Shown here one piece after another: positions 34,335-60,047 of a stretch of 64,000 nt of DNA. How positions within the stretch are numbered: the first letter of the stretch is position 1; each line of letters starts with the position of its first letter. This stretch comes from an uncultured Gammaproteobacteria bacterium. Lineage in GTDB: Bacteria > Patescibacteriota > Microgenomatia > UBA12405 > JAHJSD01. Under the pieces are notes generated by a model. That model was not told where the DNA came from, did not search any database, and was given only the letters and a program-made list of their open reading frames with translations. Where the stretch lies: the NCBI GenBank assembly GCA_964428655.1, contig CAYRYE010000001.1, forward strand, positions 9,328 to 73,327, given 5' to 3'. The position numbers and the translations under genes were made by a program.

Positions 34335-34349
34335 TATTGATGACCAAGT

Positions 34350-34421
34350 GGCAGGGGAGGGAGTCGAACCCTCGGCCTTCGCCTTATGAAAGCGCTGCTC
34401 TAACCACTGAGCTACCCTGCC
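34350..34421 (-). tRNA. tRNA with CAT anticodon (elongator Met or lysidine-modified Ile2)
   Basis: Reverse complement GGCAGGGTAGCTCAGTGGTTAGAGCAGCGCTTTCATAAGGCGAAGGCCGAGGGTTCGACTCCCTCCCCTGCCA. 7-bp acceptor, T-arm GAGGG/TTCGACT/CCCTC, anticodon loop TTCATAA. Confidence 0.85.
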
Positions 34422-34497
34422 TTCGCAACCTCACTGCTTCGGTAGGCAGGTTTGCCTTTTTTTATGGCTTGCTTGCCATAGTTTTAGCGAAGGTGGG

Positions 34498-34571
34498 TGG
34501 ACCCGAGCGGAGTCGAACCGCTGACCTTCCGGATGCAAACCGGGTGCTCTAACCAACTGAGCTACGGGCCC
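34498..34571 (-). tRNA. tRNA-Ala (TGC)
   Basis: Reverse complement GGGCCCGTAGCTCAGTTGGTTAGAGCACCCGGTTTGCATCCGGAAGGTCAGCGGTTCGACTCCGCTCGGGTCCA. G3:U70 Ala identity pair; anticodon loop TTTGCAT. Confidence 0.9.
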
Positions 34572-34623
34572 TCCGATTCGGAGGGCTTGCCCGCCAAACC
34601 GGAGGGCGGGCCCTTACAATTTG

Positions 34624-34693
34624 TTGCGGGGCCAGGAGTTGAACCTGGTCTGTGAGGTTATGGGCCTCACGTGCAGCCGTACACCACCCCGCG
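34624..34693 (-). tRNA. Initiator tRNA-fMet (CAT)
   Basis: Reverse complement CGCGGGGTGGTGTACGGCTGCACGTGAGGCCCATAACCTCACAGACCAGGTTCAACTCCTGGCCCCGCAA. C1xA72 mismatch at the top of the acceptor stem; CGCGGGG start identical to E. coli tRNAfMet; anticodon loop CCCATAA. Confidence 0.85.
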
Positions 34694-36011: not shown

Positions 36012-38354
36012 TCATACTTGGGAACGACGAGTGATTTCTGCCTCTACCACTGAAGCAGGCTGGCCATATTTTAAGACGCTTAATCTTTTAATAGTTTTAG
36101 CCAATTTGGGATTTCTTCTTTTTTTCTCAATTTCTATATCCTTAGTGGTATCCATGGAAAATGGCAGTACGGGCTCGTTATCGATAACTGTTTTTATGTA
36201 AGCATGGAACCGTTCTACGTTAAGAAGATCTTGTTCGCTAAAGACAGGTTGGAATTCACGAGCCAAGTAATTAGCATCAGAAACACCAACCTGAAAAGAC
36301 ACCACTGTTCCCACATTGCCGAAAATGGCATTTTTAACCTCTTCTTCCATTTGGCCAATAAATTGGTTGGCTACGGTAAGATTCAGGCGATACTTTCTGG
36401 CCTCGGAGAGAATTTGGGCAAAATCAGGGGTAGCAAAGTTTTGAAACTCATCAACATAAAGATAGAAATTGCGCCTCTGATCTTCCGGTATATCTTGGCG
36501 GCTCATGGCGGCCATAAGGATTCTGGGAACTAGGATTAGTCCCAAGAAGGAAGAATTTTCTTCGCCGATTTTTCCCTTAGCCAAGTTAATAATTAAAATT
36601 TTGCCCTCGTCCATTACCTTGCGGAAGTCAAAAGCTGATTTTGATTGACCGATGATGTTGCGCATCATTTTGTTAGTTACAAATCGGCCGAATTTGGAAA
36701 CAATGTAATCCAATGTTTCAGATTTGTGAAACTCAGCAGTATGGGCGATTTGTTCGGTCCAGTATTCTCTAACAATAGGGTCTTTTACTTTTGGTAGAAT
36801 TCGTTGTAGATATGGCCCGCCTGGATTTTGAAGAATTTTTACCACTTCCATAAAAGTTGTTCCTGGCACACTCATGGCAGTTAGCATGGCGTTTCTGATC
36901 GCATGTTCAAACCGGGGGCCAACAATACCGGTTTTATACGGATCGTAAAGTTTGTACATCAGATTGATTATTGCGGCAGAGACGAAGTGTTTTTGATCTT
37001 CAGTTTCTACTTCTAAAAGGTTAAGTCCAATTGGTCTTTCTGTTTCTGAAGGATCAAAATAAATTACATCTTCGGCCCTCTCGGGAGGGATGTATTCTAG
37101 AATTTGTTCGGCCAAATCATGGGGGTCGATTAAACAAATCCCTCTACCTGCTTTAATATCCTGGATAAGCATTTCCTTCATTAACTCTGTTTTGCCTGCG
37201 CCTGTTTTGCCGATAATGTAGAAATGTCTCTGCCGATCTTTTTCCTGGATATAGATTGGCTTTTCCACTCCTCGGTAACCGCTTTTACCTAAATACAAAC
37301 CAGATTCGGGAAGATTGGACGGCGGCGGAGCGGGTTTAGCTTTCAGACAGTAAACATTAGGAGTTTCTACTGTTTTATTGGGGAGATGGAAGATTGAAGC
37401 CAGTTCTTCGCTGTTTAAAATGGTTTTTATATTTCGCCAGATAATTGGTTGATAGCGGTAAATAAAGTCAATCATAAAAGAATAACGGAAACGGATTTTC
37501 TTTTCCGAAAAACCATTCCAAGGAGATTCAAATTGAGCAAAACTTGATTTGATGTTGTTGAGCTTGGCTTTAGCAATATCCATTGTTGGAGCGCAAACAA
37601 CAATTCTGATTGAAGTTTCGAATCCTGGTTTACTGCACTTGGACTCGATCGCTTCCAAAGTTCGAGCGTCCACTTTAAAACTGGCTTTTTCTGGGTCAGC
37701 CTCTTGTTTTTTGGTGTCACTGACATATGTTTTGCCTGACTTTTGCCAGTTGATATCAGTTGGGCTTATTAAAATCTGGATGGCCGCTCCCTCGTTTTCT
37801 TCTAATTTAGCCATAGCGGAAGTGATTGCTGAAAGAGGATCAGTGGGAAGATCTTTGTAGGTTTTTAAAGGATAAAAGGATTCTTTTTTAAACTTTAGCC
37901 AGGCGTAGCTAATTTTTCCGCTTTTGGAAAAGATATTATACTCATCGACTTCTTTTATCTCGGCATCAGGGTAGCCGCCATGAATTTGCCGCTCTACTAA
38001 TTCGCGCAGTTTTTGAGAGCAGGAGACAAAGAATTTAATTTCTCCATCAGTACTGACGATCTCAAAAGAAATATGGGGTTGACTTTTAAGGAATTTAAAT
38101 TTACCTCCGGTTTTGATTGAATAGAGAGAGGCCATTATTTGTTCCATGGCATCGATTTTCGTCTCATTGTCTCGGGGAACAGCGATTCTAAACAGGACGG
38201 ACTTTAAAGCCTCTTCTTCTCTTTTACGCCATCGCCACCAAAGAACAAAACTATAAAATAATAATCCAAGACCCAATAGTGTTATAACGGCAATTAAAAA
38301 GAGAACAATATAATAGAATAAGGTACTAGTTAGTTGGTTAACAGTTTGATCCAC
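36012..38354 (-). CDS. virD4: VirD4/TraG/TraD-family type IV coupling protein (FtsK/HerA-superfamily ATPase with N-terminal TM anchor)
   Basis: N-terminal TM helices; Walker A YIIGKTGAGKTELM; Walker B LYVDEFQNFATPDF; long N-terminal periplasmic/cytoplasmic domain as seen in other CPR-type coupling proteins. Confidence 0.8.
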   Translation of the reverse strand: MDQTVNQLTSTLFYYIVLFLIAVITLLGLGLLFYSFVLWWRWRKREEEALKSVLFRIAVPRDNETKIDAMEQIMASLYSIKTGGKFKFLKSQPHISFEIVSTDGEIKFFVSCSQKLRELVERQIHGGYPDAEIKEVDEYNIFSKSGKISYAWLKFKKESFYPLKTYKDLPTDPLSAITSAMAKLEENEGAAIQILISPTDINWQKSGKTYVSDTKKQEADPEKASFKVDARTLEAIESKCSKPGFETSIRIVVCAPTMDIAKAKLNNIKSSFAQFESPWNGFSEKKIRFRYSFMIDFIYRYQPIIWRNIKTILNSEELASIFHLPNKTVETPNVYCLKAKPAPPPSNLPESGLYLGKSGYRGVEKPIYIQEKDRQRHFYIIGKTGAGKTELMKEMLIQDIKAGRGICLIDPHDLAEQILEYIPPERAEDVIYFDPSETERPIGLNLLEVETEDQKHFVSAAIINLMYKLYDPYKTGIVGPRFEHAIRNAMLTAMSVPGTTFMEVVKILQNPGGPYLQRILPKVKDPIVREYWTEQIAHTAEFHKSETLDYIVSKFGRFVTNKMMRNIIGQSKSAFDFRKVMDEGKILIINLAKGKIGEENSSFLGLILVPRILMAAMSRQDIPEDQRRNFYLYVDEFQNFATPDFAQILSEARKYRLNLTVANQFIGQMEEEVKNAIFGNVGTVVSFQVGVSDANYLAREFQPVFSEQDLLNVERFHAYIKTVIDNEPVLPFSMDTTKDIEIEKKRRNPKLAKTIKRLSVLKYGQPASVVEAEITRRSQV

Positions 38355-38478
38355 GATAATAATTTCTAATTTCTAACCAAATCCCAATGACTCAATGCCC
38401 AATAACTAAAGTTTATTATTTTAATTTAATCATTAAGAATTGGATACTGGTCATTTTTTAGGTTAATTAGAAATTAAG

Positions 38479-38826
38479 TCAATTTATTTTTTTCAATACC
38501 ACTCCCTTTGGTTTCATTTTAATAAGTCTCAGACACCATTCAGCCAACCAGCGAATCGCCTGATTGACTTTTTGATTAAGCCCTTGTACCAACTGCTGCC
38601 TGCTCAATGGCAAAACAATTTTTGGCTTTTTAGCTGAGGGAGCGGTGACTAGAACTTGGCCGGTTTGATCATCAGTAACTGGTTTTGCTAAGTAGATATC
38701 ACCTTTTTCTATTTTCTCCAACCAGCCAAGAATCTCTCTTGGAATTCTTGTTTCTGGTATTTTCTTAACAGGAATTTCCCCAGATTTTTCGGTTCTTATT
38801 TGTTCTTTTTCTACCCTTTCCACCAT
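38479..38826 (-). CDS. Hypothetical protein (115 aa), operonic with virD4
   Basis: No recognisable motifs. Confidence 0.35.
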   Translation of the reverse strand: MVERVEKEQIRTEKSGEIPVKKIPETRIPREILGWLEKIEKGDIYLAKPVTDDQTGQVLVTAPSAKKPKIVLPLSRQQLVQGLNQKVNQAIRWLAEWCLRLIKMKPKGVVLKKIN

Positions 38827-38868
38827 TTTTTTCAGTATAACACTGTTAGACTTTTCTTTCAGGAAGCA

Positions 38869-40554
38869 TCACTGTTGAATTTCTGCCTTTTTTTCTTTCA
38901 AGAACTGGCTGAAACTTTCTATAAATTCAACTAATGTGGAGAAAGGAACATCGACTAAAGCAGTAAAGAAAACACTAATAATGTTATATTCTTTCCATTT
39001 TTTAGACAACCATTGACCAAGCTTGGCTAGCGGGACAGAAAGCAAATCAAGAGAAAACTCCCAAAAGCTAGTTTTTTCTTCAATGGTCATTTCTTTGGCT
39101 CTTTGTCTAATTATTAAGCCGGCAAAAACGACCATGGCTACATTCATAGTATCTAGAATAAGAGAGGTGATGGGAATTCTGACAAGATAGAAAATCCAAA
39201 AAGTAATTCCCAGCGAGATCAAACTAATGGCGGTATAGAGAGAGCCAATAATAAGCTTGGCAATCAAGCCTCTTTTTCTTCGTGGTCTGAGTTCGTAAAC
39301 GTCGTCTTCTTCTCTTTGAGAAACGATTTTCGTAATCTCGCTAACCACCCTTTTGAAATTTCCTTCTTTAGGAAGCCTTATAATTGCTACCAGAAAAAAC
39401 ATTACCAAAGTGGGGATCAAAATATCTACAACAATAGCCAGAGGACTGAATTTTCCGTAAAAAAGTTTGGCCAAAGGTACTTCAACTATGAACAGAGATA
39501 GGCCGCCGGCGACAAAAATTGAGAGAGTTGAATAAATGGCGGCTCGGAAAAGACGTGACTTTAGGGTGGAAAGCCTTTGGTAATAAGTTTTCTCAATTAA
39601 ACTTTTTAGAATCTTTGAATCAGAGAATTTTTTACTCATTTCCAGGGGCTTTTTAGAGATCACCTCAAGGATATCACCGATAATCAGATAAACGGTATCG
39701 TATTTTTCGCAGATTTTGTGAAATTCGCCAGATAAAGGATGATTGAAGTCATTTTTAATACTATCCCTGATTGAGAGAATATTTTTGCTAATTGTTTCTA
39801 AAAAGAGTTTGTCAGGCTTTGTCCATTGAGGGTAGTGAAATTTTAAGAGACGATAACTGATGATTGGAGAGTCTAAATGAAAGAGGGCATGATGAACGGC
39901 AATAAAAATTTGGACTTTTTTTTCTTCCTCAGCAATTTCGACTCCTGGAGCAGACCTGATCCTTTCTTCCATTAAATTGGTCATAAAATTAATAAGAACA
40001 TTTTCTTTTAGGGGAGGATCCAAAATTTCTTCTATTTCACAGGCAGCAATCTCCAGAATCCAGTTATAGAAATTGACTTTTTTCTTAATTTTTATCTGCA
40101 CTGAGGAGTGACTATTTGATAAAGGATTATTTTCAAGGATATAAATATATTTTTCCAGAATTTGTTGGACTTTGCTTATTTTCTCTCTTGGGATTTTATC
40201 GTTAAGGAAATGGCAGCCGCGGATCAGTTCCAAAACTAATGGTTCCGCTATTTTTTCAGGTTTAAGATTGGAGATTAAGCTAAATCCAGAAAGTTCGGAA
40301 ATCAGCCTTCTTTTCAACATTCTTTCGATAGCTGCTCTTCTAATAAGGTGTTCTTCTTTCCAATCAATAATTTTTCTAATCTTCTCGTAGAAGAAGGCTA
40401 TTTTAGAAGCGATTTCATCGACATGAATAGTGGCCACTTCTCCTTTTGTTTCTAAGCTTAAGAGAATTTTTTGATATTCCTGGACTAGCTCTTGAATTGC
40501 CGATGATGATCCGGCGCTGGTATCGTGAGTGAAAATTACTTGATTGTTATTCAT
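38869..40554 (-). CDS. Hypothetical protein, large cytoplasmic N-domain + four C-terminal TM helices; first gene of the virD4 operon
   Basis: 561 aa; TM helices about 340-470; no family recognised. Confidence 0.4.
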   Translation of the reverse strand: MNNNQVIFTHDTSAGSSSAIQELVQEYQKILLSLETKGEVATIHVDEIASKIAFFYEKIRKIIDWKEEHLIRRAAIERMLKRRLISELSGFSLISNLKPEKIAEPLVLELIRGCHFLNDKIPREKISKVQQILEKYIYILENNPLSNSHSSVQIKIKKKVNFYNWILEIAACEIEEILDPPLKENVLINFMTNLMEERIRSAPGVEIAEEEKKVQIFIAVHHALFHLDSPIISYRLLKFHYPQWTKPDKLFLETISKNILSIRDSIKNDFNHPLSGEFHKICEKYDTVYLIIGDILEVISKKPLEMSKKFSDSKILKSLIEKTYYQRLSTLKSRLFRAAIYSTLSIFVAGGLSLFIVEVPLAKLFYGKFSPLAIVVDILIPTLVMFFLVAIIRLPKEGNFKRVVSEITKIVSQREEDDVYELRPRRKRGLIAKLIIGSLYTAISLISLGITFWIFYLVRIPITSLILDTMNVAMVVFAGLIIRQRAKEMTIEEKTSFWEFSLDLLSVPLAKLGQWLSKKWKEYNIISVFFTALVDVPFSTLVEFIESFSQFLKEKKAEIQQ

Positions 40555-40566
40555 AAGTCTTTGTAA

Positions 40567-41799
40567 TTATATAGTATATTGACTGATTGTTTTTTTCATG
40601 CGGCAAAGAGCTAGTGAAGAGAGTATGGCGACTAAGGCTTCCGTGGAAACAGTAACCCAAGCGGCGGCGACAATTCCCTGCCGGGGGATGAAAACTAGAT
40701 TGAAGACCAGATTCCAAACTAAGGCGGCAGCACCAATTTTCAGGGAAACAGCTTGGCGATTTAAAGCAACTAAAGAGAATCCTGTCAAGTGGTTTAGACA
40801 AGAGAAAATTAGAGCTATAACTAGGATTTTCAGAATTAGGGCGGATCGGGTAAAATTTTCACCAGCAATAAGCAAGATGATTGGTTTATTGAGGATAAAG
40901 ACTAATGGAATTAGGATCAGGAGTCCTAGTCCGGTTAAAACCAGGCCAATTTTCATTAATTTTGCAAATTCCTTTTGAGGATTTTTTGAAAGCATGGGGA
41001 AAATAGTATTGTTAAGAAAGTAAGCTGGCAAGGCGAGATTGGCATAAATCTTGTAAGCCAAGCCGTAGATGCCAACCTGGGTAGGTCCAAGAAAACTTTT
41101 TATGGTAAAAGAGTCAATTGCCCGATCATAAGCAGAAAATAGTACCAGAAGCGTTCCCATAGGAAGCGATTCTTTGATCAATTTTCTAATAATTGATCTC
41201 TTGGATTTGATTTCTCCCTTGATAAACTTTCCAACCAGGATACTGGAGAGCAAAACAATAATTGTCTTGGTGAAAAGCCAGCCAATGATTGGCGCTGACA
41301 GCCCAAGACGCAAGTTGAGTAAAAAGATTGTGGTGACTAGAAAAATTACAGAGCCAATAATATTAATTATGGCTTTAAGGTCCATTCTGACAAAAGTTTG
41401 GAAGACTATTTCCGAAGTTAATTCCGCAATTAATCCAAAAACTAAGGGCATTGAAAGCAAAGCTAATAGTTTGATGTCGGCAAAAACAGGGAATATAATA
41501 ACAATGGCCAAACCGAGACAAGCAGCCGTTATTCCTAAGAAGAGCCGAAGTTTAACCAAAGAACCAAAGACAATCTCCTTATTTTTAGCTCGGGATAATT
41601 CGCGAACACCGATAATCTGAGTTCCCCAATTGCCGATGGCTACTAACAAATCAACAAGAGAGATAATTAAAGCATATTGGCCATAACCGGATGTTCCTAG
41701 TTTGCGAGTCAGAATGGCAGTGGCCAATAATGAAATTGAAAGCCCAATTAATTTTCCCATTACTTGTGTTCCGGAGTTGTAGATTATTTTTTTAAGCAT
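40567..41799 (-). CDS. MOP-superfamily flippase (Wzx/MurJ-like polysaccharide or lipid-linked oligosaccharide transporter)
   Basis: 410 aa, about 12 TM helices, typical polysaccharide-biosynthesis flippase layout. Confidence 0.65.
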   Translation of the reverse strand: MLKKIIYNSGTQVMGKLIGLSISLLATAILTRKLGTSGYGQYALIISLVDLLVAIGNWGTQIIGVRELSRAKNKEIVFGSLVKLRLFLGITAACLGLAIVIIFPVFADIKLLALLSMPLVFGLIAELTSEIVFQTFVRMDLKAIINIIGSVIFLVTTIFLLNLRLGLSAPIIGWLFTKTIIVLLSSILVGKFIKGEIKSKRSIIRKLIKESLPMGTLLVLFSAYDRAIDSFTIKSFLGPTQVGIYGLAYKIYANLALPAYFLNNTIFPMLSKNPQKEFAKLMKIGLVLTGLGLLILIPLVFILNKPIILLIAGENFTRSALILKILVIALIFSCLNHLTGFSLVALNRQAVSLKIGAAALVWNLVFNLVFIPRQGIVAAAWVTVSTEALVAILSSLALCRMKKTISQYTI

Positions 41800-41827
41800 T
41801 GTTTATAATTCTACAGTAAAATTAGGA

Positions 41828-42484
41828 ATGATAAATAACAAGTCTCTTATTGATCTTTTGTTTCCCAAAAAATGTCTGGTTTGCCGAAAGGCAGGCAGTT
41901 ATCTTTGCCGCCAGTGTCGAGAAGAAACCGTCCTTTTAAAACTCCAAACACATCGGGCTTGTCGAAAAAAGTTTTTAGCTGATGGATTGGTCAGTCTCTA
42001 CCAGTACCGATTTCCCCTAAATAGATTGTTAAAAGATTTTAAGTATTACCAAGTTAGAGATTTGCGTATGCTGATGGTAGATTTAACAGTATCTGCCTTA
42101 ATAAAACAGAGAGTTTTGCCTTTTTGGAAGAAAAATAATTTTGTTTTTATCCCCATGCCTCTTTTTCCAGCTCGTTGTCTTTGGCGGGGCTTTAACCAAA
42201 GCGAAGTTATTTTGGAAACGGTTTGCCAACAACTTAATTTGAAATTTGACAATAGAATTTTGATCCGGAGCAAGTGGACCAAAGAACAAGCCAAGCTTAG
42301 TGGGGAAGAAAGGCGTAAAAACATTATCAATGCTTTCCAAGTTCTGGACGAGAAGAAAGTTATGGGCAATAATTTTGTTGTTTTTGATGATGTCTATACT
42401 AGCGGCTCTAGTTTAAAGGAGGCTATTAAAACTCTTAAATCTTCCGGGGCGATGAAAGTTTGGGGGTTAACCCTTTGCCGCTGA
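41828..42484 (+). CDS. comFC: ComF/ComFC-family phosphoribosyltransferase-domain protein (competence-associated)
   Basis: N-terminal 4-Cys zinc finger LFPKKCLVCRK...CRQC; C-terminal PRTase motif VVFDDVYTSGSSLKEA. Confidence 0.85.
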   Translation: MINNKSLIDLLFPKKCLVCRKAGSYLCRQCREETVLLKLQTHRACRKKFLADGLVSLYQYRFPLNRLLKDFKYYQVRDLRMLMVDLTVSALIKQRVLPFWKKNNFVFIPMPLFPARCLWRGFNQSEVILETVCQQLNLKFDNRILIRSKWTKEQAKLSGEERRKNIINAFQVLDEKKVMGNNFVVFDDVYTSGSSLKEAIKTLKSSGAMKVWGLTLCR

Positions 42485-42523
42485 TTAATTGATAATAATG
42501 GGGATTGAAGGTATAATTCGAGC

Positions 42524-43366
42524 ATGAAAAAAGCAAGTATTGTCTTACTGATTTTAATAACTTGTTTGTTGTTTTTTCAAAGACCGACTCTTGCTGCTGA
42601 CTTAAGTGAGGCAATAGAGTCAAGAGTGTTTTCTGAAACTGAGCCCTTAAGTAAACCAACCAAAGGCAGATTGGAGTTAGCTTTGGAGCGGCAAAATATT
42701 GGTCCGCTTTCACCGCTTAATTTTTTGAAACATGCGATTCGAACCGCGATTAAGCGAGGAGCGCCGACTAACACTATCATTTTAGTTCTTCTTTTGCCTT
42801 TGGTTGGAGTTATTGTTAGCGGGCTTTATTATCTTGTTGGCTTAACCGGTTTTGGTATTTTTATGCCGGCAATGATATCAGTTGCTTTTTTAGCTACTGG
42901 AATAGTTGGCGGTCTAATTCTTTTTGCTATGATTCTGGTTTTGACTTTGGCAACAAGAAGAATTCTTAGGAAAATTAAATTTCATCAGCGATCAAGACGA
43001 GCAATTACTCTTTGGGTGGTTTCTTTGGGCACATTCCTCCTTTTGTTTTTTGCCCCCGCTTTTCATTTGCTTGACTTAACTAGGATTTCCATTTTTCCGA
43101 TTTTATTTATAATTCTCCTTTCTGATGAATTTGTTAGGGTTCGAACCGGGATGAGTCCAAAAAAAGCAATTAATATGATTGGAGGAACACTAGTTATTTC
43201 TATTTTTGGAGCCTTGATAATGGGCTGGGAGTGGTTTCAAGAATTAATTTTACTGAACCCGGAGATTAGTTCTCTTTTAATTCTTCTTGTTAGTTTTTCG
43301 GTTGGCCGCTACACAGGCTTTCGTCTATTGGAATATCGCCGCTTCAAAAGTGTAGTTAGAAAATAA
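42524..43366 (+). CDS. Polytopic membrane protein with signal peptide (probable 7TM partner of the ATP-grasp/retropepsin peptide-modification module)
   Basis: Signal peptide plus about 6-7 TM helices; immediately upstream of, and co-oriented with, the ATP-grasp genes. Confidence 0.5.
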   Translation: MKKASIVLLILITCLLFFQRPTLAADLSEAIESRVFSETEPLSKPTKGRLELALERQNIGPLSPLNFLKHAIRTAIKRGAPTNTIILVLLLPLVGVIVSGLYYLVGLTGFGIFMPAMISVAFLATGIVGGLILFAMILVLTLATRRILRKIKFHQRSRRAITLWVVSLGTFLLLFFAPAFHLLDLTRISIFPILFIILLSDEFVRVRTGMSPKKAINMIGGTLVISIFGALIMGWEWFQELILLNPEISSLLILLVSFSVGRYTGFRLLEYRRFKSVVRK

Positions 43367-43370
43367 TACA

Positions 43371-44681
43371 ATGAAGAATTTTTCATCTGTTTTAAGCAGG
43401 AATTACAGGAATCGGTTTTATTTGACGTATAACCATCCCCGAGGGAAAAAAATAGCCAATTCCAAATTGAGAACCAAAAAGATTTTGAGTAAAAATGAAG
43501 TTGCTATTCCTAAGCTTTTGGCGATTTTGAAAACACAAGCTGATGTGGCTAATTTTCGTTGGGAAGAGCTAGAGGAAAATTTTGCGGTTAAACCAGTTTC
43601 TAGTTCCGGAGGTGAGGGGATTCTTGTAATTCGAAAAAAGGCTAAATGGGCGGGCGAGTGGTTTTTAATGGATGGCAGGAAAATTAACATTTCTGATTTA
43701 AGATTTCATTGTTTTGATATTCTTCAAGGCCATTTTAATATTAGGAGAACACCAGACAAGATTTTTATTGAGGAGCGAGTTAAAATCCATCCTAAATTTT
43801 TGCGCTTTACCAAATTGGGAACTCCGGATATCCGTGTAATTGTTTTTAATCGAGTGCCAATAATGGCAATGTTGAGAATTCCTACTGAGGAGTCCGGAGG
43901 CAAAGCTAATATTACCCATGGAGCTATTGGCCTAGGAGTGGATTTAGCTACAGGAATTACCATTTTTGGAGTTCAAAATGACCATTTAATTACGAAGATT
44001 TATGATAGGCGCCGCAAGAAAAAAATTAAGGTTAATGGAATTAAAGTACCTTTTTGGAACAAAATTCTGAAAACTGCAGTTTTTTGTCAAGAAGTGGTTC
44101 CTGGATTAGGCTATATGGGGGTGGATATTTTTTTAGATAAAGAAAAAGGACCGGTGGTGGTTGAATTGAATGCTCGTCCCGGTCTTGCAATTCAAATTTG
44201 CAATCGGGCCGGTTTAAGACGCCGATTGGAGCGAATAGCAGGTTTAAAAGTGAGAAGCGCGGCTCATGGAATCAGAATCGCTCAATCTCTTTTTGGAGAA
44301 AGTTTTGTTGATCGAGTCAGGTCAAATATTGAAATAGAAGTGCTTTCAATGTTGGAACCGATTAGATTGAAAACTTTTGTTAAAGGAGTTAAAAGGCTGG
44401 ATTTAACTGCTAAGATAGATACTGGGGCTTTTCGCAGTTCGGTAGATGAGGAATTAGCGAAAGAAATAGGTCTTTTGAAGAAAGATAATATTCTTTATTA
44501 TCGCCACTATCGTTCTGCTTTGGGTAGAAAACACCGTCGGCCAGTAGTTGGAGCCACTTTTTGGATTAAAGGCAGAAAAATTATTACTGCTGTTAATGTG
44601 ACTAATAGAGAGAAGTTGAGAACTAAATTTTTGGTTGGCAGAAAAGATTTAAGTGGTTTTATGGTTAAAGTTGGAGAATAA
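43371..44681 (+). CDS. ATP-grasp (alpha-L-glutamate-ligase-like) enzyme fused to a C-terminal retropepsin-like aspartic protease domain
   Basis: ATP-grasp motifs SSGGEGILVI and GYMGVDIFLDKEKGPVVVELNARPGL. C-terminal AKIDTGAFRS (D-T-G-A catalytic signature) as in RimK-associated 'ATP-dependent zinc protease'/retropepsin-like domains. Confidence 0.7.
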   Translation: MKNFSSVLSRNYRNRFYLTYNHPRGKKIANSKLRTKKILSKNEVAIPKLLAILKTQADVANFRWEELEENFAVKPVSSSGGEGILVIRKKAKWAGEWFLMDGRKINISDLRFHCFDILQGHFNIRRTPDKIFIEERVKIHPKFLRFTKLGTPDIRVIVFNRVPIMAMLRIPTEESGGKANITHGAIGLGVDLATGITIFGVQNDHLITKIYDRRRKKKIKVNGIKVPFWNKILKTAVFCQEVVPGLGYMGVDIFLDKEKGPVVVELNARPGLAIQICNRAGLRRRLERIAGLKVRSAAHGIRIAQSLFGESFVDRVRSNIEIEVLSMLEPIRLKTFVKGVKRLDLTAKIDTGAFRSSVDEELAKEIGLLKKDNILYYRHYRSALGRKHRRPVVGATFWIKGRKIITAVNVTNREKLRTKFLVGRKDLSGFMVKVGE

Positions 44682-44683
44682 AT

Positions 44684-45616
44684 ATGAAAAAACAAAAATC
44701 GGAAATTTTAGTTTTGTTCGGGAAAGGGGCCACTCCTCATATTCTTGCTGTTCAAAAAGAGTTAGAACTGCTTGGTGAGCCTGCGACTTTTTCTAATTAT
44801 AAAGATGTAAGATTTCAAGTGGGCGAAGGCGGCAGTGCCAAAATCCTTTTAGGTAAAACGAATTTATCTCAATTTAAGGTAATATTTTTTAGAACAACAG
44901 GTAAGAAATGGGAAGAGGTAAATTTAATACTTTCTTATCTTAAAGAAAGAGTTGAAAAAAAGTTGGTCAGGATTGTTGATCCTGTAATTTTGGGTGGACG
45001 ACCCTACCTTTCAATGAAGGCTCATCAAATGTTTGTTTTTCACCAAGCCGGTTTGCCAGTGCCGAGGACCATTTATGGCAGTTTGAAATTTATTAAAGAG
45101 GAAGTAGGTAGAGTAATTGGTTTTCCGGCAGTAGTAAAGCGAAGTGAAGGAGGTCGGGGCCAAAGAGTGTATTTAGCCAAAGATCAGCCGAGGCTAAATT
45201 ATTTAATCGAAGAACTTAAGTCTCAAGAGAAAGAAGAAGGAAAAAGATTTTTGGTCCAGGAATTTATTGCCAACAAAGGTGATTTGAGAATTTTAGTTTT
45301 GGGCAACCAAATATTGGGAGCAATAAAAAGAGTCAGAGCCAAAAAAGGCGAGTTCCGCAATAATGTTTCTCTGGGGGGCAAAGTCTATCCCTCTAAATTA
45401 GACAAAAAAATAAAACAGATAGCCTTGAGAGCGGCAAAAATTGCTCAACTTTCAGTGGCGGGAGTGGACATTGTTTTAAGGGATCCGGACCAAAAACCGT
45501 TTATTTTCGAGGTCAATCGTGCGCCTCAATTTAAAGGGTTTATGAGAGCCACTGGAATTAATGTGCCTTTAAAGCTGGCTGAGTATTTAATTTCATTAAA
45601 AGAACAAACAAGGTGA
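44684..45616 (+). CDS. rimK: RimK-family ATP-grasp ligase (paralog 1)
   Basis: VVKRSEGGRGQRVYLAKD, FLVQEFIANKGDLRILVLGNQILGAIKR, VAGVDIVL...FEVNRAPQFKGF match RimK-type alpha-L-glutamate ligase. Confidence 0.8.
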   Translation: MKKQKSEILVLFGKGATPHILAVQKELELLGEPATFSNYKDVRFQVGEGGSAKILLGKTNLSQFKVIFFRTTGKKWEEVNLILSYLKERVEKKLVRIVDPVILGGRPYLSMKAHQMFVFHQAGLPVPRTIYGSLKFIKEEVGRVIGFPAVVKRSEGGRGQRVYLAKDQPRLNYLIEELKSQEKEEGKRFLVQEFIANKGDLRILVLGNQILGAIKRVRAKKGEFRNNVSLGGKVYPSKLDKKIKQIALRAAKIAQLSVAGVDIVLRDPDQKPFIFEVNRAPQFKGFMRATGINVPLKLAEYLISLKEQTR

Positions 45617-46536
45617 AACTATTACTTTTAAGAATCAATAAAGAAAAATATGTACCGGAAAGAATTAAAGAAGAAGCGAAAAAATTAGGACATCAAGTGA
45701 ATGTTTGTCAATATCAAAATTTAGCTTTTAAATTCGACCCACTGTTTCAGGCAGGAATTTTAGATAAAAAAAACATTGCTGATTATGATGGACTTATTTT
45801 CCGAGTTGCCGGAACCACAAGTGGCAGTTATGTTGCCTTTCGGGATATTTTAATTGCTCAATTTTTAAAATCAGGAAAATTCTGTCTTAATGGCCGCAGT
45901 TATTTGAAATTTTCCCGTTTGGATAAGTTAATTCAACACTTTTATCTTTCCTGGGCTGGATTACCAGTGGTGAGAACTTTTTGTTTTGGCAAAGGTGCTT
46001 CCGTTGATTATGCTGAAGCTCAATTGGGAAAAAGACTTGGTTTTCCGATTATTGCCAAACCGCGCTTTGGTGCCCAGGGTAGAGAAATTTTCTTGTTGAA
46101 AAATGAAAGCGAAATTAAGAAGTTTTACCAAAAAACAAGAAAAAAAGAGGATATTAGTTTGTGGTTGTTCCAAGAGTTTTTATCCACAGGTTGTGATTAC
46201 AGAATTGTTGTTTTGGGTGGTAAAGTTTTGGGAGCAATGAAAAGAGTGGCAGTCAAAGGAATGATTGTGACTAATTTTTCTCAAGGTGGGTCTGTTTATT
46301 CTTTTGAACCAACAAAAAAGCAAATGCAATTGGCTCTAAAAGTAGCCAAACTATTTAATCTGGACTATGCTGGAGTCGATATTATGGAAGATAAGCAAGG
46401 TAATAGTTATGTTTTGGAAGTCAACCGCGCCTGCCAATTTAAAGGTTTTGAAAAAGCCACTGGCATTAACGTCGCCGCTAAAATTGTGGAATTACTTTTG
46501 ACACCTGGGGCAGAAAAAGGTGCCGCGGCCGCCTAA
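45613..46536 (+). CDS. rimK: RimK-family ATP-grasp ligase (paralog 2)
   Basis: IAKPRFGAQGREIFL, WLFQEFLSTGCDYRIVVLGGKVLGAMKR, YAGVDIMEDKQGNSYVLEVNRACQFKGF; 4-nt overlap with paralog 1. Confidence 0.8.
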   Translation: MKLLLLRINKEKYVPERIKEEAKKLGHQVNVCQYQNLAFKFDPLFQAGILDKKNIADYDGLIFRVAGTTSGSYVAFRDILIAQFLKSGKFCLNGRSYLKFSRLDKLIQHFYLSWAGLPVVRTFCFGKGASVDYAEAQLGKRLGFPIIAKPRFGAQGREIFLLKNESEIKKFYQKTRKKEDISLWLFQEFLSTGCDYRIVVLGGKVLGAMKRVAVKGMIVTNFSQGGSVYSFEPTKKQMQLALKVAKLFNLDYAGVDIMEDKQGNSYVLEVNRACQFKGFEKATGINVAAKIVELLLTPGAEKGAAAA

Positions 46537-47307
46537 TTTGATTTTTTCAATTTTCCCTTGACAATCAAAACAGTTTTTCCCTTCTCGGTTATAAACTAAA
46601 AAATAGTCTTGATATAAACCCTTGCGACCTAAAGCGTCCAGATAGTATTGGTTAGAAGCGCCGCGATATTTAATACCGGCTTGGAGAACTTTCTCAATCG
46701 CCCGGTAGAGTCTCCTAGCCTCTTTTTCATTAATTTTATTAGCGGCTTGGCAGGGATCAACTTTAGCTAAAAACAAAGCATCATTGGCGTAAATGTTGCC
46801 TATGCCACTGATTTTTTTCTGATCCATTAAAACGATTTTAACAGCCCGTTTAGTGGAAGTGAGAATTTTTTTGAATCGGTTAAAACTGAGATCACTTAAA
46901 GGTTCAGGTCCAAATTCACTGAAGATTTTTTCCAGCTCCTTTTTATCTTTTAGCAATCTGATCCAGCCAAATTTTCGCAGATCGGCAAAACGGAGTTCTT
47001 GATTGCCACTTAAATAGATAGTGATGTGCTGCCATTTATCTGGAGGTTCTTTTCCATTTCGAACTAAAAGCCGGCCTGTTAGTTTAAGATGAATATTTAA
47101 GATCTTATCGTTGTCAAGGAAAATTTGAATAATTTTGGCTCGCCGGCCTACCTTTTTGATTTTGGTACCAATAATAGCTTTCTTTACCTTTTTAAAAGAA
47201 GGCTGGATTTGTTTAGGCGAGTCAGTTTCAATACCTAAGATTTTTTTACCAACAATTAGTTTTGATAGGCCCCGTTTAATGGTTTCAACTTCAGGTAGTT
47301 CCGGCAC
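46492..47307 (-). CDS. mutM: Formamidopyrimidine-DNA glycosylase (Fpg/MutM)
   Basis: N-terminal MPELPEVE catalytic Pro2/Glu3, H2TH, and C-terminal CxxC...CxxC zinc finger. Confidence 0.9.
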   Translation of the reverse strand: MPELPEVETIKRGLSKLIVGKKILGIETDSPKQIQPSFKKVKKAIIGTKIKKVGRRAKIIQIFLDNDKILNIHLKLTGRLLVRNGKEPPDKWQHITIYLSGNQELRFADLRKFGWIRLLKDKKELEKIFSEFGPEPLSDLSFNRFKKILTSTKRAVKIVLMDQKKISGIGNIYANDALFLAKVDPCQAANKINEKEARRLYRAIEKVLQAGIKYRGASNQYYLDALGRKGLYQDYFLVYNREGKNCFDCQGKIEKIKLGGRGTFFCPRCQK

Positions 47308-50093
47308 TATTTTCCAAACTCTACTCCAAAATTTAGATCTTTATCCAATTGCTGGTTAAATAACAATTTGCCTGAGACTAAACTGGCACTGGGATTGACT
47401 TGCAGCGGCTGCCAATTTTCGGGAAAAGAGACGAGTAGGGAAACTGGCGTTTCTCGGTAGCCAGATTGCTTTTGCCAATAGAGAAGATACCCCAATTTAT
47501 CATTGTTGGTATTTTGCTGTTGGCTAAAGCGTATTTCAACAGTCAATCTTTGTCTGATTGGCACTTTTACTTGAAAGCCAATCACTTCTTTTCCATCCGC
47601 TATTTCCTCTTTTCGCTTATCAACACCGATAATCTTTCTATTCTGGGCATTAAGGGGATCGTAGGCAACAATTTCTTCTATTTTGCTTTGTTTTGGCAAG
47701 TAAACCCGCAGCCAACTGAGGTATTTTCCCCCGGGCCAGCTTTCAGACACAGCCGTGTTTTCGTAGTTAATTTTTAATTGGTGACCAATTTCGCCGTTTT
47801 CTTTGAATTCAATTGCCTGTTCCAAAGTCCGGCGGAGAAAGTAGTTAGCCTTATTGACTCCTAAGTTAGCCTCAACAAGATAGAGGTAGTCGGCAAAACA
47901 ATTGTCGAGATTACAGCGCGGAGTTCTGATACTGCCATCCCAATTCAGCTGATAAAGAGTTTTATTTAATTGAGAATTATGAGTAAAGATAAGAATCTCT
48001 TTTTCCTCCAAAGAATCCATAATTGCTTGAGTAATTTTCAGGTGTTCTTCAGGTCGGGCAGCTTTAATATTCTCAAATAATTGTTTGCCTAATAATCCTA
48101 AAAAGGCCATTTTTTGGTCTGAGCCGGGAAAAGATTCGTTTTCAGACCAGAATTCGGCCCGTTCAAAAAGATTATTGGCATCAATTTTTTCATTAAAGTC
48201 GGGCAAATAGACTTCTCCAAAAGCGCTGATTATTTTTTTGGCCGCTTCTAGATTAAAACCGATCGTCCCATCGACTTCGCGGCCTAATTCTTTTTTCAAA
48301 AACCACTCTGAGCTCTTAGCAGTTTTAGGAAAATTAGGGTTCCAGTTTGAGTCTCTTAAGTACCAGTTTGCCTCTCCTAGGATTTCCTTAATCTCTCTTG
48401 GCGGCTCAACATGCCCTTTGAGTTGGCCATCAGCAGTGTAGACATCTTTGACATCAAAATTAGTTAGGGCTCCGTCTTCAAAAGTAAGTAGAGCAAAAGA
48501 ACCAATAAAACCTCCGGTTGGACGTAGCTCCATATTGTTTTGTAAAAGAACTAGAAAAGTTCTTCGTTGATTGTCAAGGCCGATTATCCACGGGAGGTTG
48601 CTCAATAGTTTTTCGCCTTTAGCTAATGGTTTCCTAATATTTTCGATTTTGGCGGCCCATTCCTTAGGTAAATGGCGCCATCTAAGCGGTAGCCAATGCC
48701 AGGAATTTTTTAAAAATGCTTCAATGAGTGTTAATTCAGCCGAAAGCTGGCTTTGTTGGGTTTGGATTTGTTGGATTTGTGCATTAAAGTCAAGGTCTTG
48801 GTCTTTTAAGATGGCTTCAGATAGAATTAGGGCATTCTTGGCTAAAGGGACAGCATTTTCACTAGCAGCGGCAATTCTTTTTCCAGTTTCAGCAATTTGC
48901 CCCAAGCTTTTTTTAGCAGTCAAAAAGAGACAGCTTAAACGATGGTTTTTAAGGAAGTTCTCTGCTTGCCAAAAGTGGTTTTTTGCTTTTCGAGTTGAGA
49001 TTTCAGCTTCAGCCCAAGATTGAGATTTAAGATAAGTGAGAGTTTTTTTTAGCTGCCAGCTGCCCAACCCGATGGCGACAGTTGGTTTTAGCCAGACTGA
49101 TAGTACAACAGCCAAGCCAAACAGTAGGAAAATTAGTAAATATTGCCATTGACGCGGCTTTTTATTTTTTACTTCAGCGGGCGGCGTTTTCGGTTTAGTT
49201 AGTGGCGGTTTTTCTTCAAACTGAGAGATGATTTTTTTTACCTTCTCTTCTAAAGGCTCTTCGATAATAATAGTTTCTTCTTCTTTTTCTTTTCTGAGTT
49301 TTTTCTTAGTTTTTTTAACTTTTTTAGGGATGATGGGGACTGGAGTTGGAGCTGGTATTTCCGGGGTAGTAAGAATGGTGATTTTTTCTGGCTCAATTTT
49401 TTTCCAAAAATAGCGAAAGGCTTTTTCTATAGCAACCTGCCAATCTATTTTGGGCTGCCAGTTTAACTGCTGATTAGTTTCTTGAATTTGAGCTGAAAAG
49501 TATTGAGGCAAACTTTGCTTTGAAGAAAAATGGATTCCCTGGGTTGTTTGGCTTAATTGCTGTAAAAAGTTGGCTAGCTTTCCTAATTCCACTGATTGAC
49601 CCAAGACTAAGAATTCCTTTTCGGTTGTTCCTGGCGTAACCAATGCCTGCCAGACTGCTTCAGCTAAATCATTTACTTGCAGAGGATAAATTTTCTCTGA
49701 GCTGGAGCCTGGGAATTCTAAGACTTTGTTTTTGACAGCAGAGCTGATTAGTTGACCTAAAAATGAGCTGGTTGGCATTTGAGGACCAACAAGAAAATCA
49801 GTTCTGACAACACGCCAGTTTATTTTTTCCAATGGCGGTGAAACATGTTGGCCGATCATTAATTGAAGATATTTAGTATTTTGTTTTTGGGCTAAACTGA
49901 TTGCTTTCCGACTGCCAAAGCAGTCAACAATATAATCAACGGATTTAGGAAGTTTTTGGTTTGAACCCGATTTAACACTCAAGCCTCTTTTTCTGAACAG
50001 TTTAGCAATCGATTTTCTCAAAAAATGATCAGCGAATATGACCATTGTTGAGCTGGTTGTTGATATCTCGAATTGAAAAGAAGTTTTGGGCAT
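47307..50093 (-). CDS. Large membrane protein: degenerate NAD(P)-binding epimerase-like N-domain, Lys/Pro-rich linker, TM helix, C-terminal DUF4012-like extracytoplasmic domain
   Basis: 928 aa; TM WQYLLIFLLFGLAVVLSVWL; LRPTGGFIGSFALLTFEDG... resembles the DUF4012 family found in cell-envelope polymer loci. Confidence 0.5.
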   Translation of the reverse strand: MPKTSFQFEISTTSSTMVIFADHFLRKSIAKLFRKRGLSVKSGSNQKLPKSVDYIVDCFGSRKAISLAQKQNTKYLQLMIGQHVSPPLEKINWRVVRTDFLVGPQMPTSSFLGQLISSAVKNKVLEFPGSSSEKIYPLQVNDLAEAVWQALVTPGTTEKEFLVLGQSVELGKLANFLQQLSQTTQGIHFSSKQSLPQYFSAQIQETNQQLNWQPKIDWQVAIEKAFRYFWKKIEPEKITILTTPEIPAPTPVPIIPKKVKKTKKKLRKEKEEETIIIEEPLEEKVKKIISQFEEKPPLTKPKTPPAEVKNKKPRQWQYLLIFLLFGLAVVLSVWLKPTVAIGLGSWQLKKTLTYLKSQSWAEAEISTRKAKNHFWQAENFLKNHRLSCLFLTAKKSLGQIAETGKRIAAASENAVPLAKNALILSEAILKDQDLDFNAQIQQIQTQQSQLSAELTLIEAFLKNSWHWLPLRWRHLPKEWAAKIENIRKPLAKGEKLLSNLPWIIGLDNQRRTFLVLLQNNMELRPTGGFIGSFALLTFEDGALTNFDVKDVYTADGQLKGHVEPPREIKEILGEANWYLRDSNWNPNFPKTAKSSEWFLKKELGREVDGTIGFNLEAAKKIISAFGEVYLPDFNEKIDANNLFERAEFWSENESFPGSDQKMAFLGLLGKQLFENIKAARPEEHLKITQAIMDSLEEKEILIFTHNSQLNKTLYQLNWDGSIRTPRCNLDNCFADYLYLVEANLGVNKANYFLRRTLEQAIEFKENGEIGHQLKINYENTAVSESWPGGKYLSWLRVYLPKQSKIEEIVAYDPLNAQNRKIIGVDKRKEEIADGKEVIGFQVKVPIRQRLTVEIRFSQQQNTNNDKLGYLLYWQKQSGYRETPVSLLVSFPENWQPLQVNPSASLVSGKLLFNQQLDKDLNFGVEFGK

Positions 50094-50103
50094 TATGATG
50101 ATT

Positions 50104-50532
50104 TTAACAAACTTGCCTGCCTGTTGTAAGATCCAAGGCTTGATTGAGAAGTTGATCAGCCTCGCTGTTTAGTTCTCGAAAGATATGGTAGTAGTTGATT
50201 TTTGAGCGAAGATTCTTTTCCAAGGTTTTTGCTTTTTGCCAGAGAGATTTAATATTTAAAGATTTGATTTTAAACTCGCCTTTCATTTGAGCAACGACTA
50301 ATTTGGAGTCAAGAAAACAATCAATTACATTTACTTGAAATGTATTTTCTTTGACCCATTCTAAAGCGTGGATCAACCCTTGGTATTCTGCTTGATTATT
50401 AGTCGCTTTTCCAATGGTTTTGCCTTCTTGATAAATGGTTTTGCCTGTTTTGCTTTTGATGACTATTCCAATAGCAGCTGGGCCTGGATTGCCTCTTGCG
50501 CCTCCATCAGTGTAGATTTTTAAATATTTCAT
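50104..50532 (-). CDS. rnhA: Ribonuclease HI
   Basis: YTDGGARGNPGPAAIG, TNNQAEYQGLIHALEW, and a C-terminal D...ADxL catalytic layout. Confidence 0.9.
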   Translation of the reverse strand: MKYLKIYTDGGARGNPGPAAIGIVIKSKTGKTIYQEGKTIGKATNNQAEYQGLIHALEWVKENTFQVNVIDCFLDSKLVVAQMKGEFKIKSLNIKSLWQKAKTLEKNLRSKINYYHIFRELNSEADQLLNQALDLTTGRQVC

Positions 50533-58932: not shown

Positions 58933-59300
58933 GGTCCTGGGATTTTAAACTCAGTGACATTTGCTCCGGTGAACTCTTTAATCAAAATCAAGATAAACCA
59001 GCCAGCAATAGTTAAAACTAAACCGATTATGGCAGTGGTAAGAGTGTTTTTAGCTGACTGTAATCCCTTTTGTTCACCACCAGCAAAGATTAATTTAAAA
59101 CCACCAACAATCAGCATTGCTCCAAAAGCCAAGCCGGCGATGGTAGTGGCTATTCTCAAAATGTTGATAAATAGACACTGAAAACCTTGAAGGGTGGCAA
59201 CAGTGGGGTCGGTAGCACTAACACAGTCTCCACTCCAAAATACGGGATCAGCTGCAAAAACTGGTCCCCAAAAGACAATTCTTTTCTTGAGATAATTCAC
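58929..59300 (-). CDS. VirB2/TrbC-like pilin-type protein (paralog 3 of 8)
   Basis: ...MLIVGGFKLIFAGGEQKGLQSAKNTLTTAIIGLVLTIAGWF...FKIPGP. Confidence 0.5.
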   Translation of the reverse strand: MNYLKKRIVFWGPVFAADPVFWSGDCVSATDPTVATLQGFQCLFINILRIATTIAGLAFGAMLIVGGFKLIFAGGEQKGLQSAKNTLTTAIIGLVLTIAGWFILILIKEFTGANVTEFKIPGP

Positions 59301-59303
59301 TGT

Positions 59304-59669
59304 TTATCCTTGCAGACTGGGAATTTCTAGTTGCAGAATATTGATTCCAAACAGAGCTTCAATCAATTTTATAATTGCCCAGGCAACGAAAATAATGGCC
59401 AAACCAATCAAAGCATGAGTGATTTGGTTTCGGGCATTTTCGACCTCTGTCTTATCACCTTTAGACGTGATCCATCGAACTCCGCCCCAGATCAAAATGG
59501 CAAAAAATACCAAGGCGACAATAACCAAGACCAATCGGATCAATCCAGAAACAACACTGGCAATTGTTAAACCGCCAAGAGCACTAAATTGTCCTCCAGG
59601 AGAAATATCAATTGGTTCTTGGGCCCAAGCGGGTTTTGCTATTAGAGCCATTAGTTTTTCCATGTTCAC
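59304..59669 (-). CDS. VirB2/TrbC-like pilin-type protein (paralog 4 of 8)
   Basis: ...FAILIWGGVRWITSKGDKTEVENARNQITHALIGLAIIF...INILQLEIPSLQG. Confidence 0.5.
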   Translation of the reverse strand: MNMEKLMALIAKPAWAQEPIDISPGGQFSALGGLTIASVVSGLIRLVLVIVALVFFAILIWGGVRWITSKGDKTEVENARNQITHALIGLAIIFVAWAIIKLIEALFGINILQLEIPSLQG

Positions 59670-59706
59670 CTCCTTTCAAGAATGCGACATACAACAATTT
59701 TATAAA

Positions 59707-60045: not shown

Positions 60046-60047
60046 CT

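Follow-up and report, generated by a model that had tools for sequence, protein, structure and literature searches.

A conserved Microgenomates operon of a 7TM protein, an ATP-grasp::retropepsin fusion and RimK-family ligases, very probably of the Rlo/Rim kind

The subject of this analysis is a group of four genes in a 64,000-nucleotide (nt) stretch of DNA (contig CAYRYE010000001.1; the whole stretch is called the window here). At positions 42524-46536 the window contains four co-directional open reading frames (ORFs) on the + strand, of 280, 436, 310 and 307 amino acids (aa), which encode a seven-transmembrane (7TM) protein (gene 1), an ATP-grasp ligase fused to a retropepsin-like aspartic protease (gene 2) and two RimK-family ligases (genes 3 and 4). 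The genes are tightly packed, as a first-pass annotation of this DNA had described: the gaps are 4 nt between genes 1 and 2 and 2 nt between genes 2 and 3, and genes 3 and 4 overlap by 4 nt. An independent Joint Genome Institute (JGI) annotation of the identical stretch made the same four gene calls, and the module there is 100% identical. The four genes are a real and strongly conserved operon of Microgenomates bacteria, members of the Candidate Phyla Radiation (CPR), and the module very probably belongs to the Rlo/Rim systems, in which glutamate ligases are associated with a retropepsin.

Conservation was determined by a scan of one genome per species, in which at least 576 stretches encoded a relative of the fusion protein; locus counts were taken on the best 80 of these, from 80 species-level genomes of Shapiro-, Woese- and Collierbacteria and further Patescibacteria. 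The 7TM gene was found directly upstream of the fusion gene in every locus with room for it (71/71; median gap 19 nt). Directly downstream on the same strand, a RimK gene was present in 66 of 75 loci (median gap 3 nt), and this first RimK is of type A in most loci; a second RimK gene came next in 33 of 65 loci, 30 of which had the order A then B. All-against-all clustering of the ORFs in the 80 loci gave no conserved neighbour beyond the 7TM, fusion and RimK families, and the ComF-like, Fpg, flippase and DUF4012 genes are common to the window and its closest relatives only. The order 7TM, ATP-grasp::retropepsin, RimK, whose conservation had been proposed as a check, is kept across Microgenomates, and the families of the membrane and fusion proteins belong to one known functional triad rather than being unrelated. 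As these genomes are very small and the module is widespread among them, an important envelope or stress function in Microgenomates is suggested.

The N-terminal part of gene 2 is an ATP-grasp ligase. Residues 13-289 matched PF14397 (ATPgrasp_ST) with E=2.3e-59 and 201 bits, against a cut-off of 31.4. TIGR02291, an ‘alpha-L-glutamate ligase-like’ family that we take to include RloC, aligned end to end (positions 11-315 of 317) with 251 bits, under its equivalog cut-off of 314, so the domain is of the same family as RloC and orthology is not thereby established. The NCBIfam models for RloB and RloA2 matched the module proteins weakly and are, together with TIGR02291, the closest named models. 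The ATP/Mg residues K74, D252, E265 and N267 were kept in 79/79 orthologues; these are full-length proteins from species-level genomes, and they underlie all residue counts given here for the fusion protein. In an AlphaFold2 model of the fusion (predicted local distance difference test score 83), a disordered linker at residues 312-321 leads into a beta-rich domain. The ligase domain showed structural likeness in Foldseek to Ddl, cyanophycin synthetase (CphA), ArgX/LysX and RimK. When the fusion model was compared with the PDB, all 50 matches listed were ATP-grasp ligases and the protease domain was not picked up; it was therefore examined through a separate profile of the C-terminal domain (C-domain) and through a library of predicted viral structures.

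On whole gene 2, PF05618 (Zn_protease, now ‘RimB-like’) matched residues 374-431 with 21.6 bits, below the cut-off of 27. With isolated C-domains, 15/15 matched PF05618 (best E=3.7e-10) and 13 matched Asp_protease_2. The C-domain profile hit PDB entries 9G59 (6.7e-9), 9G58 (3.4e-5) and 2PMA (8.6e-4), of which 9G58 and 9G59 are crystal structures of RloA (Lormand et al., mBio 2025, PMC12239564). The best match among predicted viral structures was a phage ‘acid protease’ (E=1.2e-10, template-modelling score 0.75), and further matches were foamy-virus, lentivirus/retroviral, simian T-lymphotropic virus (STLV) and caulimovirus proteases. The retropepsin assignment of gene 2 residues ~322-436 is secure at the family level. 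Thus an ATP-grasp enzyme fused to a DTGA-bearing retropepsin, as read in the first pass from the motifs SSGGEGILVI, GVDIFLDKEKGPVVVELNARPGL and AKIDTGAF (all present in the gene 2 translation), is borne out by PF14397, by the PF05618-type C-domain and by the 9G59/9G58 matches. The family searches that had been suggested together with that reading gave matches to PF14402, PF14397 and PF08443, and to PF05618 by way of the isolated C-domains.

The residues of the protease domain bear on its substrate. D350-T351-G352-A353 is invariant in an alignment of 25 full-length homologues, and over the larger set D, G and A of this motif occur in 79/79 and T in 78/79. Moreover, K348, D350, R390 and R413 align opposite RloA K46, D48, R114 and R137, and the spacing of 23 residues between R390 and R413 equals that between R114 and R137 of RloA. 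Both arginines and D350 are kept in 79/79 fusion proteins, and K348 in 74/79. In RloA, the substitutions R114A and R137A caused the strongest loss of polyglutamate cleavage and abolished complementation (PMC12239564). The C-domain is also strongly basic, with a median net charge of +16 across the orthologues. The conservation of residues that RloA needs for polyglutamate cleavage, in a basic domain, points to an acidic substrate. The C-domain has no cysteine in 78/79 orthologues; secreted RloA proteins have a conserved disulfide that is absent from cytosolic RimB (PMC12239564). Since the protease is fused to an ATP-dependent enzyme without a signal peptide or transmembrane (TM) segment, and no hydrophobic segment separates the ligase and retropepsin domains, it is cytoplasmic like RimB.

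Gene 1 matched PF14402 (7TM_transglut) over profile positions 58-247 of 248 (E=1.5e-23, 84.1 bits against a cut-off of 25). By its sequence and the helices of its AlphaFold2 model, it begins with a signal-like segment (residues 1-24), which is followed by ~60 residues on the outside and then by seven hydrophobic helices; this layout agrees with the polytopic, signal-peptide-bearing membrane protein noted earlier; the loop charges place the N-terminus outside and the C-terminus inside. The outside segment contains an invariant T39-E40 pair (consensus ITEP; SETEP in the window protein), and conserved motifs on the cytoplasmic face are EEFxRxQ (SDEFVRVR in the window protein) and GxYxGxRxxExxRF. 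Because the NCBIfam RloB model NF052267 covers only the 7TM half of its length here (positions 312-507 of 508, with 48 bits where the cut-off is 900), and because all of the 120 homologues listed are of 231-329 aa and carry PF14402 only, gene 1 is without the inactive transglutaminase domain that defines RloB.

Genes 3 and 4 both matched PF08443 RimK (E=1.4e-35 and E=3.5e-31), gene 4 in addition RimK_N (PF18030, E=4.3e-7), and both passed the cut-off of 143.4 for the RimK family TIGR00768, with 150 and 168.8 bits. Neither reached the cut-off of any equivalog model for S6 ligase, MptN, CofF or LysX; for PRK10446 (S6 ligase, cut-off 331) the scores were 85.6 and 84.4 bits. That these are two diverged RimK ligases overlapping by a few bases, as originally proposed, agrees with their identity of 35%, and at this divergence the duplication is old. 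Of the 112 RimK-like ORFs in the related loci, 109-111 retain the Mg/ATP catalytic motifs. Taking the alignments together, the catalytic residues predicted for all four enzymatic domains of the module were shown to be intact.

The same domains occur joined in other ways elsewhere. Against 1.84 billion representatives, the C-domain profile found 283 clusters at E<=1e-10. Among the best 150 of them, the ligase is upstream of the protease in 33, the protease lies between an N-terminal TM segment and a 7TM domain in 18, tandem proteases occur in 9 and the protease is alone in 90, the last being either true standalone proteins or gene fragments. One of the 18 TM-retropepsin-7TM clusters (P0268) has two tandem protease domains. 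With the protease after the N-terminal TM segment and before the 7TM domain, this arrangement would place it outside the cell. At two such loci a stand-alone PF14397 ligase gene comes next, with overlapping or abutting stop and start codons, and at one or more (L084 and L085 are noted for it) a glutamate dehydrogenase gene follows the ligase. These independent fusions suggest that the ligase, protease and 7TM domains are tied together as one functional unit, and, since the protease can evidently work inside as well as outside, the simplest account is a product that is made in the cytoplasm and moved out via or along the 7TM protein.

Two other proteins from this search are either true fusions or gene-call artefacts: P0376 (688 aa) joins a PF14397 ligase, a retropepsin and a YdjC-like sugar deacetylase, and P0346 (539 aa) joins a class I lysyl-tRNA synthetase and a retropepsin. 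Records of metagenome-assembled genomes (L003, L006, L007, L009 and about 40 more) titled ‘uncultured Gammaproteobacteria/Pseudomonadales bacterium’ carry the CPR-type module, and the nearest of them also have window-like flanks (DUF4012, ComF-like, flippase); such titles look like placeholders or wrong taxonomy. One further locus, L064, is labelled Bathyarchaeia.

Coordinates of the module and of related features are collected in Table 1. The promoter-like element, near-consensus and sigma-70-like, was the top-scoring site within 41500-47400, and together with the terminator-like element it is consistent with transcription of the four genes as one unit. As the -10 hexamer ends 6 nt short of the gene 1 ATG, use of this promoter would mean a leaderless or nearly leaderless mRNA; alternatively, GAAGG located 13 nt upstream could serve as a ribosome-binding site on a transcript reading through from the ComF-like gene. 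An Rfam scan of 38000-50500 gave no regulatory RNA. Gene 4 (+) shares the last 45 nt of its 3′-end (46492-46536) with the convergently oriented fpg gene (46492-47307, -).

Table 1. Features of the module in the window, and related fusions at other loci
Feature	Coordinates	Strand	Basis or remark
Gene 1, 7TM membrane protein resembling the C-terminal half of RloB	42524..43366	+	PF14402; 280 aa; without transglutaminase domain
Gene 2, ATP-grasp::retropepsin fusion	43371-44681	+	436 aa
Gene 2, RloC-type ATP-grasp domain, residues 1-315	43371..44315	+	PF14397, TIGR02291, conserved residues, Foldseek
Gene 2, retropepsin domain (RloA/RimB-like, PF05618), residues ~322-436	44334..44681	+	DTGA at 44418-44429
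Gene 3, RimK-family ATP-grasp ligase, type A (usual first RimK of the module)	44684..45616	+	PF08443, TIGR00768; 310 aa
Gene 4, RimK-family ATP-grasp ligase, type B, with RimK_N pre-ATP-grasp domain	45613..46536	+	PF08443, PF18030, TIGR00768; 307 aa; GTG start
Promoter-like element, TTGATA-17 nt-TATAAT	42489..42517	+	11/12 consensus matches; ends 6 nt before gene 1 ATG; consensus match only
Terminator-like hairpin and T-rich tail at gene 4 stop codon	46518..46534	+	Consensus match only
Retropepsin-7TM fusions	L084 6001-8323; L085 and L086 2277-4306; P0312, P0318, P0339, P0348, P0268		

The 7TM, ATP-grasp and retropepsin-like triad had been called essentially uncharacterised in the first pass, and this no longer holds: for RloA/RloB/RloC there are crystal structures, in vitro polyglutamate cleavage and genetic epistasis (PMC12239564), the protease is of the type of RimB, which trims polyglutamate made by RimK (PMC11957791), and NCBIfam already has RloB and RloA2 models. 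In Pseudomonas, loss of all three RloA paralogues leads to hypo-osmotic lethality and to defects of biofilm, antibiotic tolerance and shape, and in P. aeruginosa without the protease these defects are suppressed when rloB or rloC is lost as well (PMC12239564). This suppression implies that RloB and RloC make a substance that the protease removes.

Based on these precedents, our preferred reading is that the module is the Microgenomates form of the Rlo/Rim systems, in which ligases, a trimming protease and a 7TM protein act on acidic chains; for this full statement we consider the case evenly balanced. In the proposed mechanism, three cytoplasmic ATP-grasp ligases, one of RloC type and one or two of RimK type, would add amino acids stepwise using ATP. 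The amino acid added would most likely be L-glutamate in alpha linkage, and the product an acidic chain, either free or on an acceptor. The retropepsin domain would dimerise to form a two-aspartate active site, and the fused protease may cleave, trim or release the acidic chains where they are made, in the cytoplasm, in the way that RimB acts on the chains made by RimK. At the membrane, the 7TM protein would dock the ligase and hand the product on to the cell surface or envelope. We infer that glutamate is the substrate, that export is via the 7TM protein and that labour is divided between the ligases; a glutamate polymer together with its export is a tentative proposal that falls somewhat short of an even chance. 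The general idea of the first pass, i.e. stepwise ligation with proteolytic trimming at the membrane, is therefore retained as the best reading, without the RiPP-like (ribosomally made, post-translationally modified peptide) precursor that it also had in view.

Several observations weigh against the preferred reading. RimK is not adjacent in 9/75 loci, and it is thus a frequent partner but not an obligatory one. The flap of the CPR protease, counted from the catalytic D to the R, has 40 residues against 66-68 in RloA, i.e. it is ~28 residues shorter, so that substrate length or specificity may differ from RloA. To our knowledge, none of the RloC-type (PF14397) ligases has a reported biochemical activity, and neither has the 7TM domain. 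The product of the Rlo system was not known to the authors of the RloA study (PMC12239564). Two details that count on the same side also favour another explanation, in which the module decorates the envelope: Pfam describes PF14397 as ‘sugar-transfer associated’, and one relative (P0376) joins ligase and retropepsin to the YdjC-like sugar deacetylase. Here the RloC-type ligase, with help from the RimKs, would add amino acids to a carboxylate on a precursor of the cell wall or of a surface glycan, such as a peptidoglycan stem, a uronic acid or a teichoic-like polymer; a lipid-linked intermediate would be flipped or held by the 7TM protein, and the protease would edit the peptide branch. The cell-shape, beta-lactam and hypo-osmotic phenotypes of Pseudomonas rlo mutants and the increased release of membrane vesicles on loss of the RloB homologue in Shewanella are in line with such a role, as are the Polysacc_synt flippase, VanW/PG_binding protein and DUF4012 protein near the module in the window. 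These envelope neighbours, however, occur in the closest relatives only and not across the 80 loci, the conserved module has no glycosyltransferase, an error in gene calling may account for the one YdjC fusion, and the protease retains its polyglutamate-binding arginines. We consider envelope decoration unlikely. Modification of the ribosome alone is a quite unlikely explanation; in it ribosomal protein S6 would be polyglutamylated by the RimKs and its tail shortened by the fused protease, and the 7TM protein would do no more than sense or regulate this activity from the membrane. RimK of Escherichia coli extends the Glu-Glu tail of S6. Both RimK paralogues here score above the RimK-family cut-off, RimB and RimK offer a precedent, and the cytoplasmic, cysteine-free protease is closer to RimB than to secreted RloA, but at ~85 and ~84 bits the two paralogues stay below the S6-ligase equivalog cut-off of 331, and the explanation accounts neither for the strict adjacency of the 7TM gene (71/71) nor for the fusion of the protease to the RloC-type ligase rather than to RimK. 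S6 was not found in the 64-kb window and was seen in two related loci only; the two S6 proteins (95-96 aa) end in ...LLIVIE and ...LIVLKV, without a Glu-Glu tail, two loci being too few to decide. One of these two S6-bearing genomes has a RimK gene adjoining the fusion gene.

The protease could in principle act on polyglutamate that is encoded in the genome, the ligases having a separate role. A PrgI-family (type IV secretion) protein at 19189-20037 (-) in the window has a run of 11 Glu just after its membrane domain, long enough for an enzyme such as RloA, which needs at least 8 consecutive Glu; its closest homologues have E5-E11 at the same position, and no run of at least 6 Glu occurs in 306,414 ORF residues from the 80 related loci. 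Against this, at least 8 Glu occur in only 3 of 120 PrgI homologues and at least 5 in only 18, more distant relatives with the module have just a mixed acidic linker in place of the tract, and the gene lies 23 kb from the module. The E11 run may be a substrate of the protease or simply a variable acidic linker, and as an explanation of the module we hold it to be very improbable. Maturation of a ribosomal precursor peptide of RiPP or graspetide type, the ‘peptide maturation’ of the first-pass annotation, has hardly any claim left. Graspetide clusters typically combine ATP-grasp ligases with a protease in one operon, and NCBIfam graspetide maturase models do match, but with only 17-31 bits against cut-offs of 350-475. 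The intergenic gaps of 2-39 nt leave no space for a peptide gene inside the operon, and the small precursor-peptide ORF that was to be sought nearby did not appear: a search for small or acidic ORFs in 700 nt on each side of the module in the 80 loci found none conserved and only 2 that are acid-rich. Judging from their sequences, small ORFs that recur near the module appear to be alternative frames of neighbouring genes or of a possible tRNA gene. Moreover, the ligases fall into the RimK and RloC clades, for which no use of a precursor peptide with a leader is known; what RimK extends is free Glu or the C-terminus of S6.

Other features of the window are recorded here for their own sake. The 23S and 16S rRNA genes, at 215-3024 (-) and 21109-22588 (+), are full-length Rfam matches, unlinked, ~18 kb apart and on opposite strands; unlinked rRNA genes are often reported in CPR genomes. 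A tmRNA gene with the tag peptide AEDNLALAYA is at 7155-7500 (-), and a cluster of tRNA-Met, tRNA-Ala and tRNA-Met genes is at 34348-34693 (-). Type IV secretion-like genes, encoding a VirB4/TraG P-loop ATPase, a coupling-protein-like ATPase and tandem small T4SS-pilin-like proteins, are scattered at 16587-18467, 36012-38354, 58929-60801 and 23478-24088 (all -). A family of ~120-aa proteins with two TM segments is found ~2 kb upstream of the module in 41/80 related loci, in ~6 copies per locus. At 38869-40554 (-) a 561-aa membrane protein without a Pfam match adjoins the Polysacc_synt flippase gene, a pair that lies upstream of the module in the closest relatives only (L003, L007 and L009). 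The DUF4012 ORF (47307-50093, -) is intact in the window, with 928 aa, whereas the JGI contig (L001), identical in other respects, has it in two pieces of 147 and 706 aa; the sequences are out of register from ~47798, as with an indel. Since close relatives have an intact gene of 916-932 aa, the split is probably an assembly or strain variant.

A bolder form of the preferred reading is that the module is a self-contained machine for an acidic peptide similar to poly-alpha-glutamate: it would polymerise the chain, control how long it grows and export it, and the polymer would have an envelope or osmoprotective role in CPR bacteria. Priming would fall to the RloC-type ligase and elongation to the RimKs, the fused retropepsin dimer would measure the chain or release it, and the 7TM protein would act as a translocator of a new kind for peptide polymers. 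We regard this form as doubtful, although, if true, it would show what Rlo systems in general produce, those of the clinically relevant Pseudomonas and Vibrio operons among them; the Rlo operon bears on antibiotic tolerance, biofilm formation and cell shape in Pseudomonas. In any case, the CPR variant may serve as a ‘Rosetta stone’, as its protease is covalently bound to the RloC-type ligase and its RimKs are in the operon, while elsewhere the protease is on the 7TM protein, outside. These fusions and associations suggest a single membrane-crossing product on which the ligase, the protease and the 7TM protein all act, and a functional link between the Rlo and Rim systems. For biochemical work on the chemistry of the Rlo family, the compact fused enzyme should also be a convenient starting point. 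The first-pass claim of a novel system holds for the architecture, apparently undescribed for CPR (none of the papers searched mentions the CPR form or the Pfam names), but not for the kind of system, as the Rlo/Rim domains are already known.

Among known systems the closest is RloABC of P. aeruginosa and P. fluorescens, which consists of the secreted retropepsin RloA, the inactive-transglutaminase-7TM protein RloB and the ATP-grasp protein RloC; RloA cuts runs of at least 8 consecutive Glu, and RloB is 96% proteobacterial (PMC12239564). Both have a PF05618 DTGA retropepsin, a PF14402 7TM protein and a PF14397/TIGR02291 ATP-grasp protein in one operon, and the CPR protease keeps the equivalents of RloA K46, D48, R114 and R137. 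In contrast to the separate, secreted and disulfide-bonded RloA, the CPR protease is the C-terminal domain of the ligase, has neither signal peptide nor cysteine and has a flap ~28 residues shorter. The CPR 7TM protein has an outside segment of ~60 residues instead of the inactive transglutaminase domain of ~300 residues in RloB, and the operon, in a CPR host, includes one or two RimK genes.

Cytoplasmic RimB binds RimK, trims the S6 polyglutamate tails made by RimK and stimulates synthesis of free poly-alpha-glutamate, and a RimB-RimK hybrid with the protease at its N-terminus is proteolytically active (Little et al., JBC 2025, PMC11957791). The CPR module resembles this RimK/RimB (RimABK) system in that a cytoplasmic retropepsin is physically coupled to an ATP-grasp ligase, that RimK-family genes are present and that synthesis would be balanced by trimming, and the RimBK hybrid is a precedent for a ligase-protease fusion. 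In RimBK, however, the protease is N-terminal on RimK, whereas in the CPR form it is C-terminal on a PF14397 ligase of RloC type and the RimKs are separate. Unlike rim loci, moreover, the CPR module has an invariant 7TM partner and no RimA (EAL) gene, and its modification of S6 is doubtful.

Neighbourhoods of ATP-grasp, 7TM-inactive-transglutaminase and aspartyl-peptidase genes were reportedly predicted by Iyer, Abhiman, Burroughs and Aravind in 2009 (Mol Biosyst 5:1636, as cited in PMC12239564 and PMC12096838), which would also be the source of PF14397 and PF14402. The CPR operon is of this same class, essentially as the first pass had read it, in a form without transglutaminase, with a fused protease and with linked RimKs. 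Cyanophycin synthetase and the Pgs/Cap poly-gamma-glutamate systems likewise make amino-acid polymers, by an ATP-dependent and ribosome-independent synthesis that is coupled to the membrane in Pgs/Cap, and CphA is one of the best structural matches to the ligase domain; multi-domain CphA and Pgs, with its Mur-ligase-like PgsB, differ in enzyme family and architecture and have neither a retropepsin nor a 7TM_transglut protein. The retropepsin-7TM fusions share with the CPR module the short-flap retropepsin subfamily, a 7TM domain with the C-terminal motif GxYxGLRxxExxRF and the ligase family, and differ in that their protease is outside the membrane and no RimK is adjacent. With its protease on the ligase, its 7TM protein without a transglutaminase domain and its RimKs in the operon, the CPR form thus merges features of the Rlo and Rim systems.

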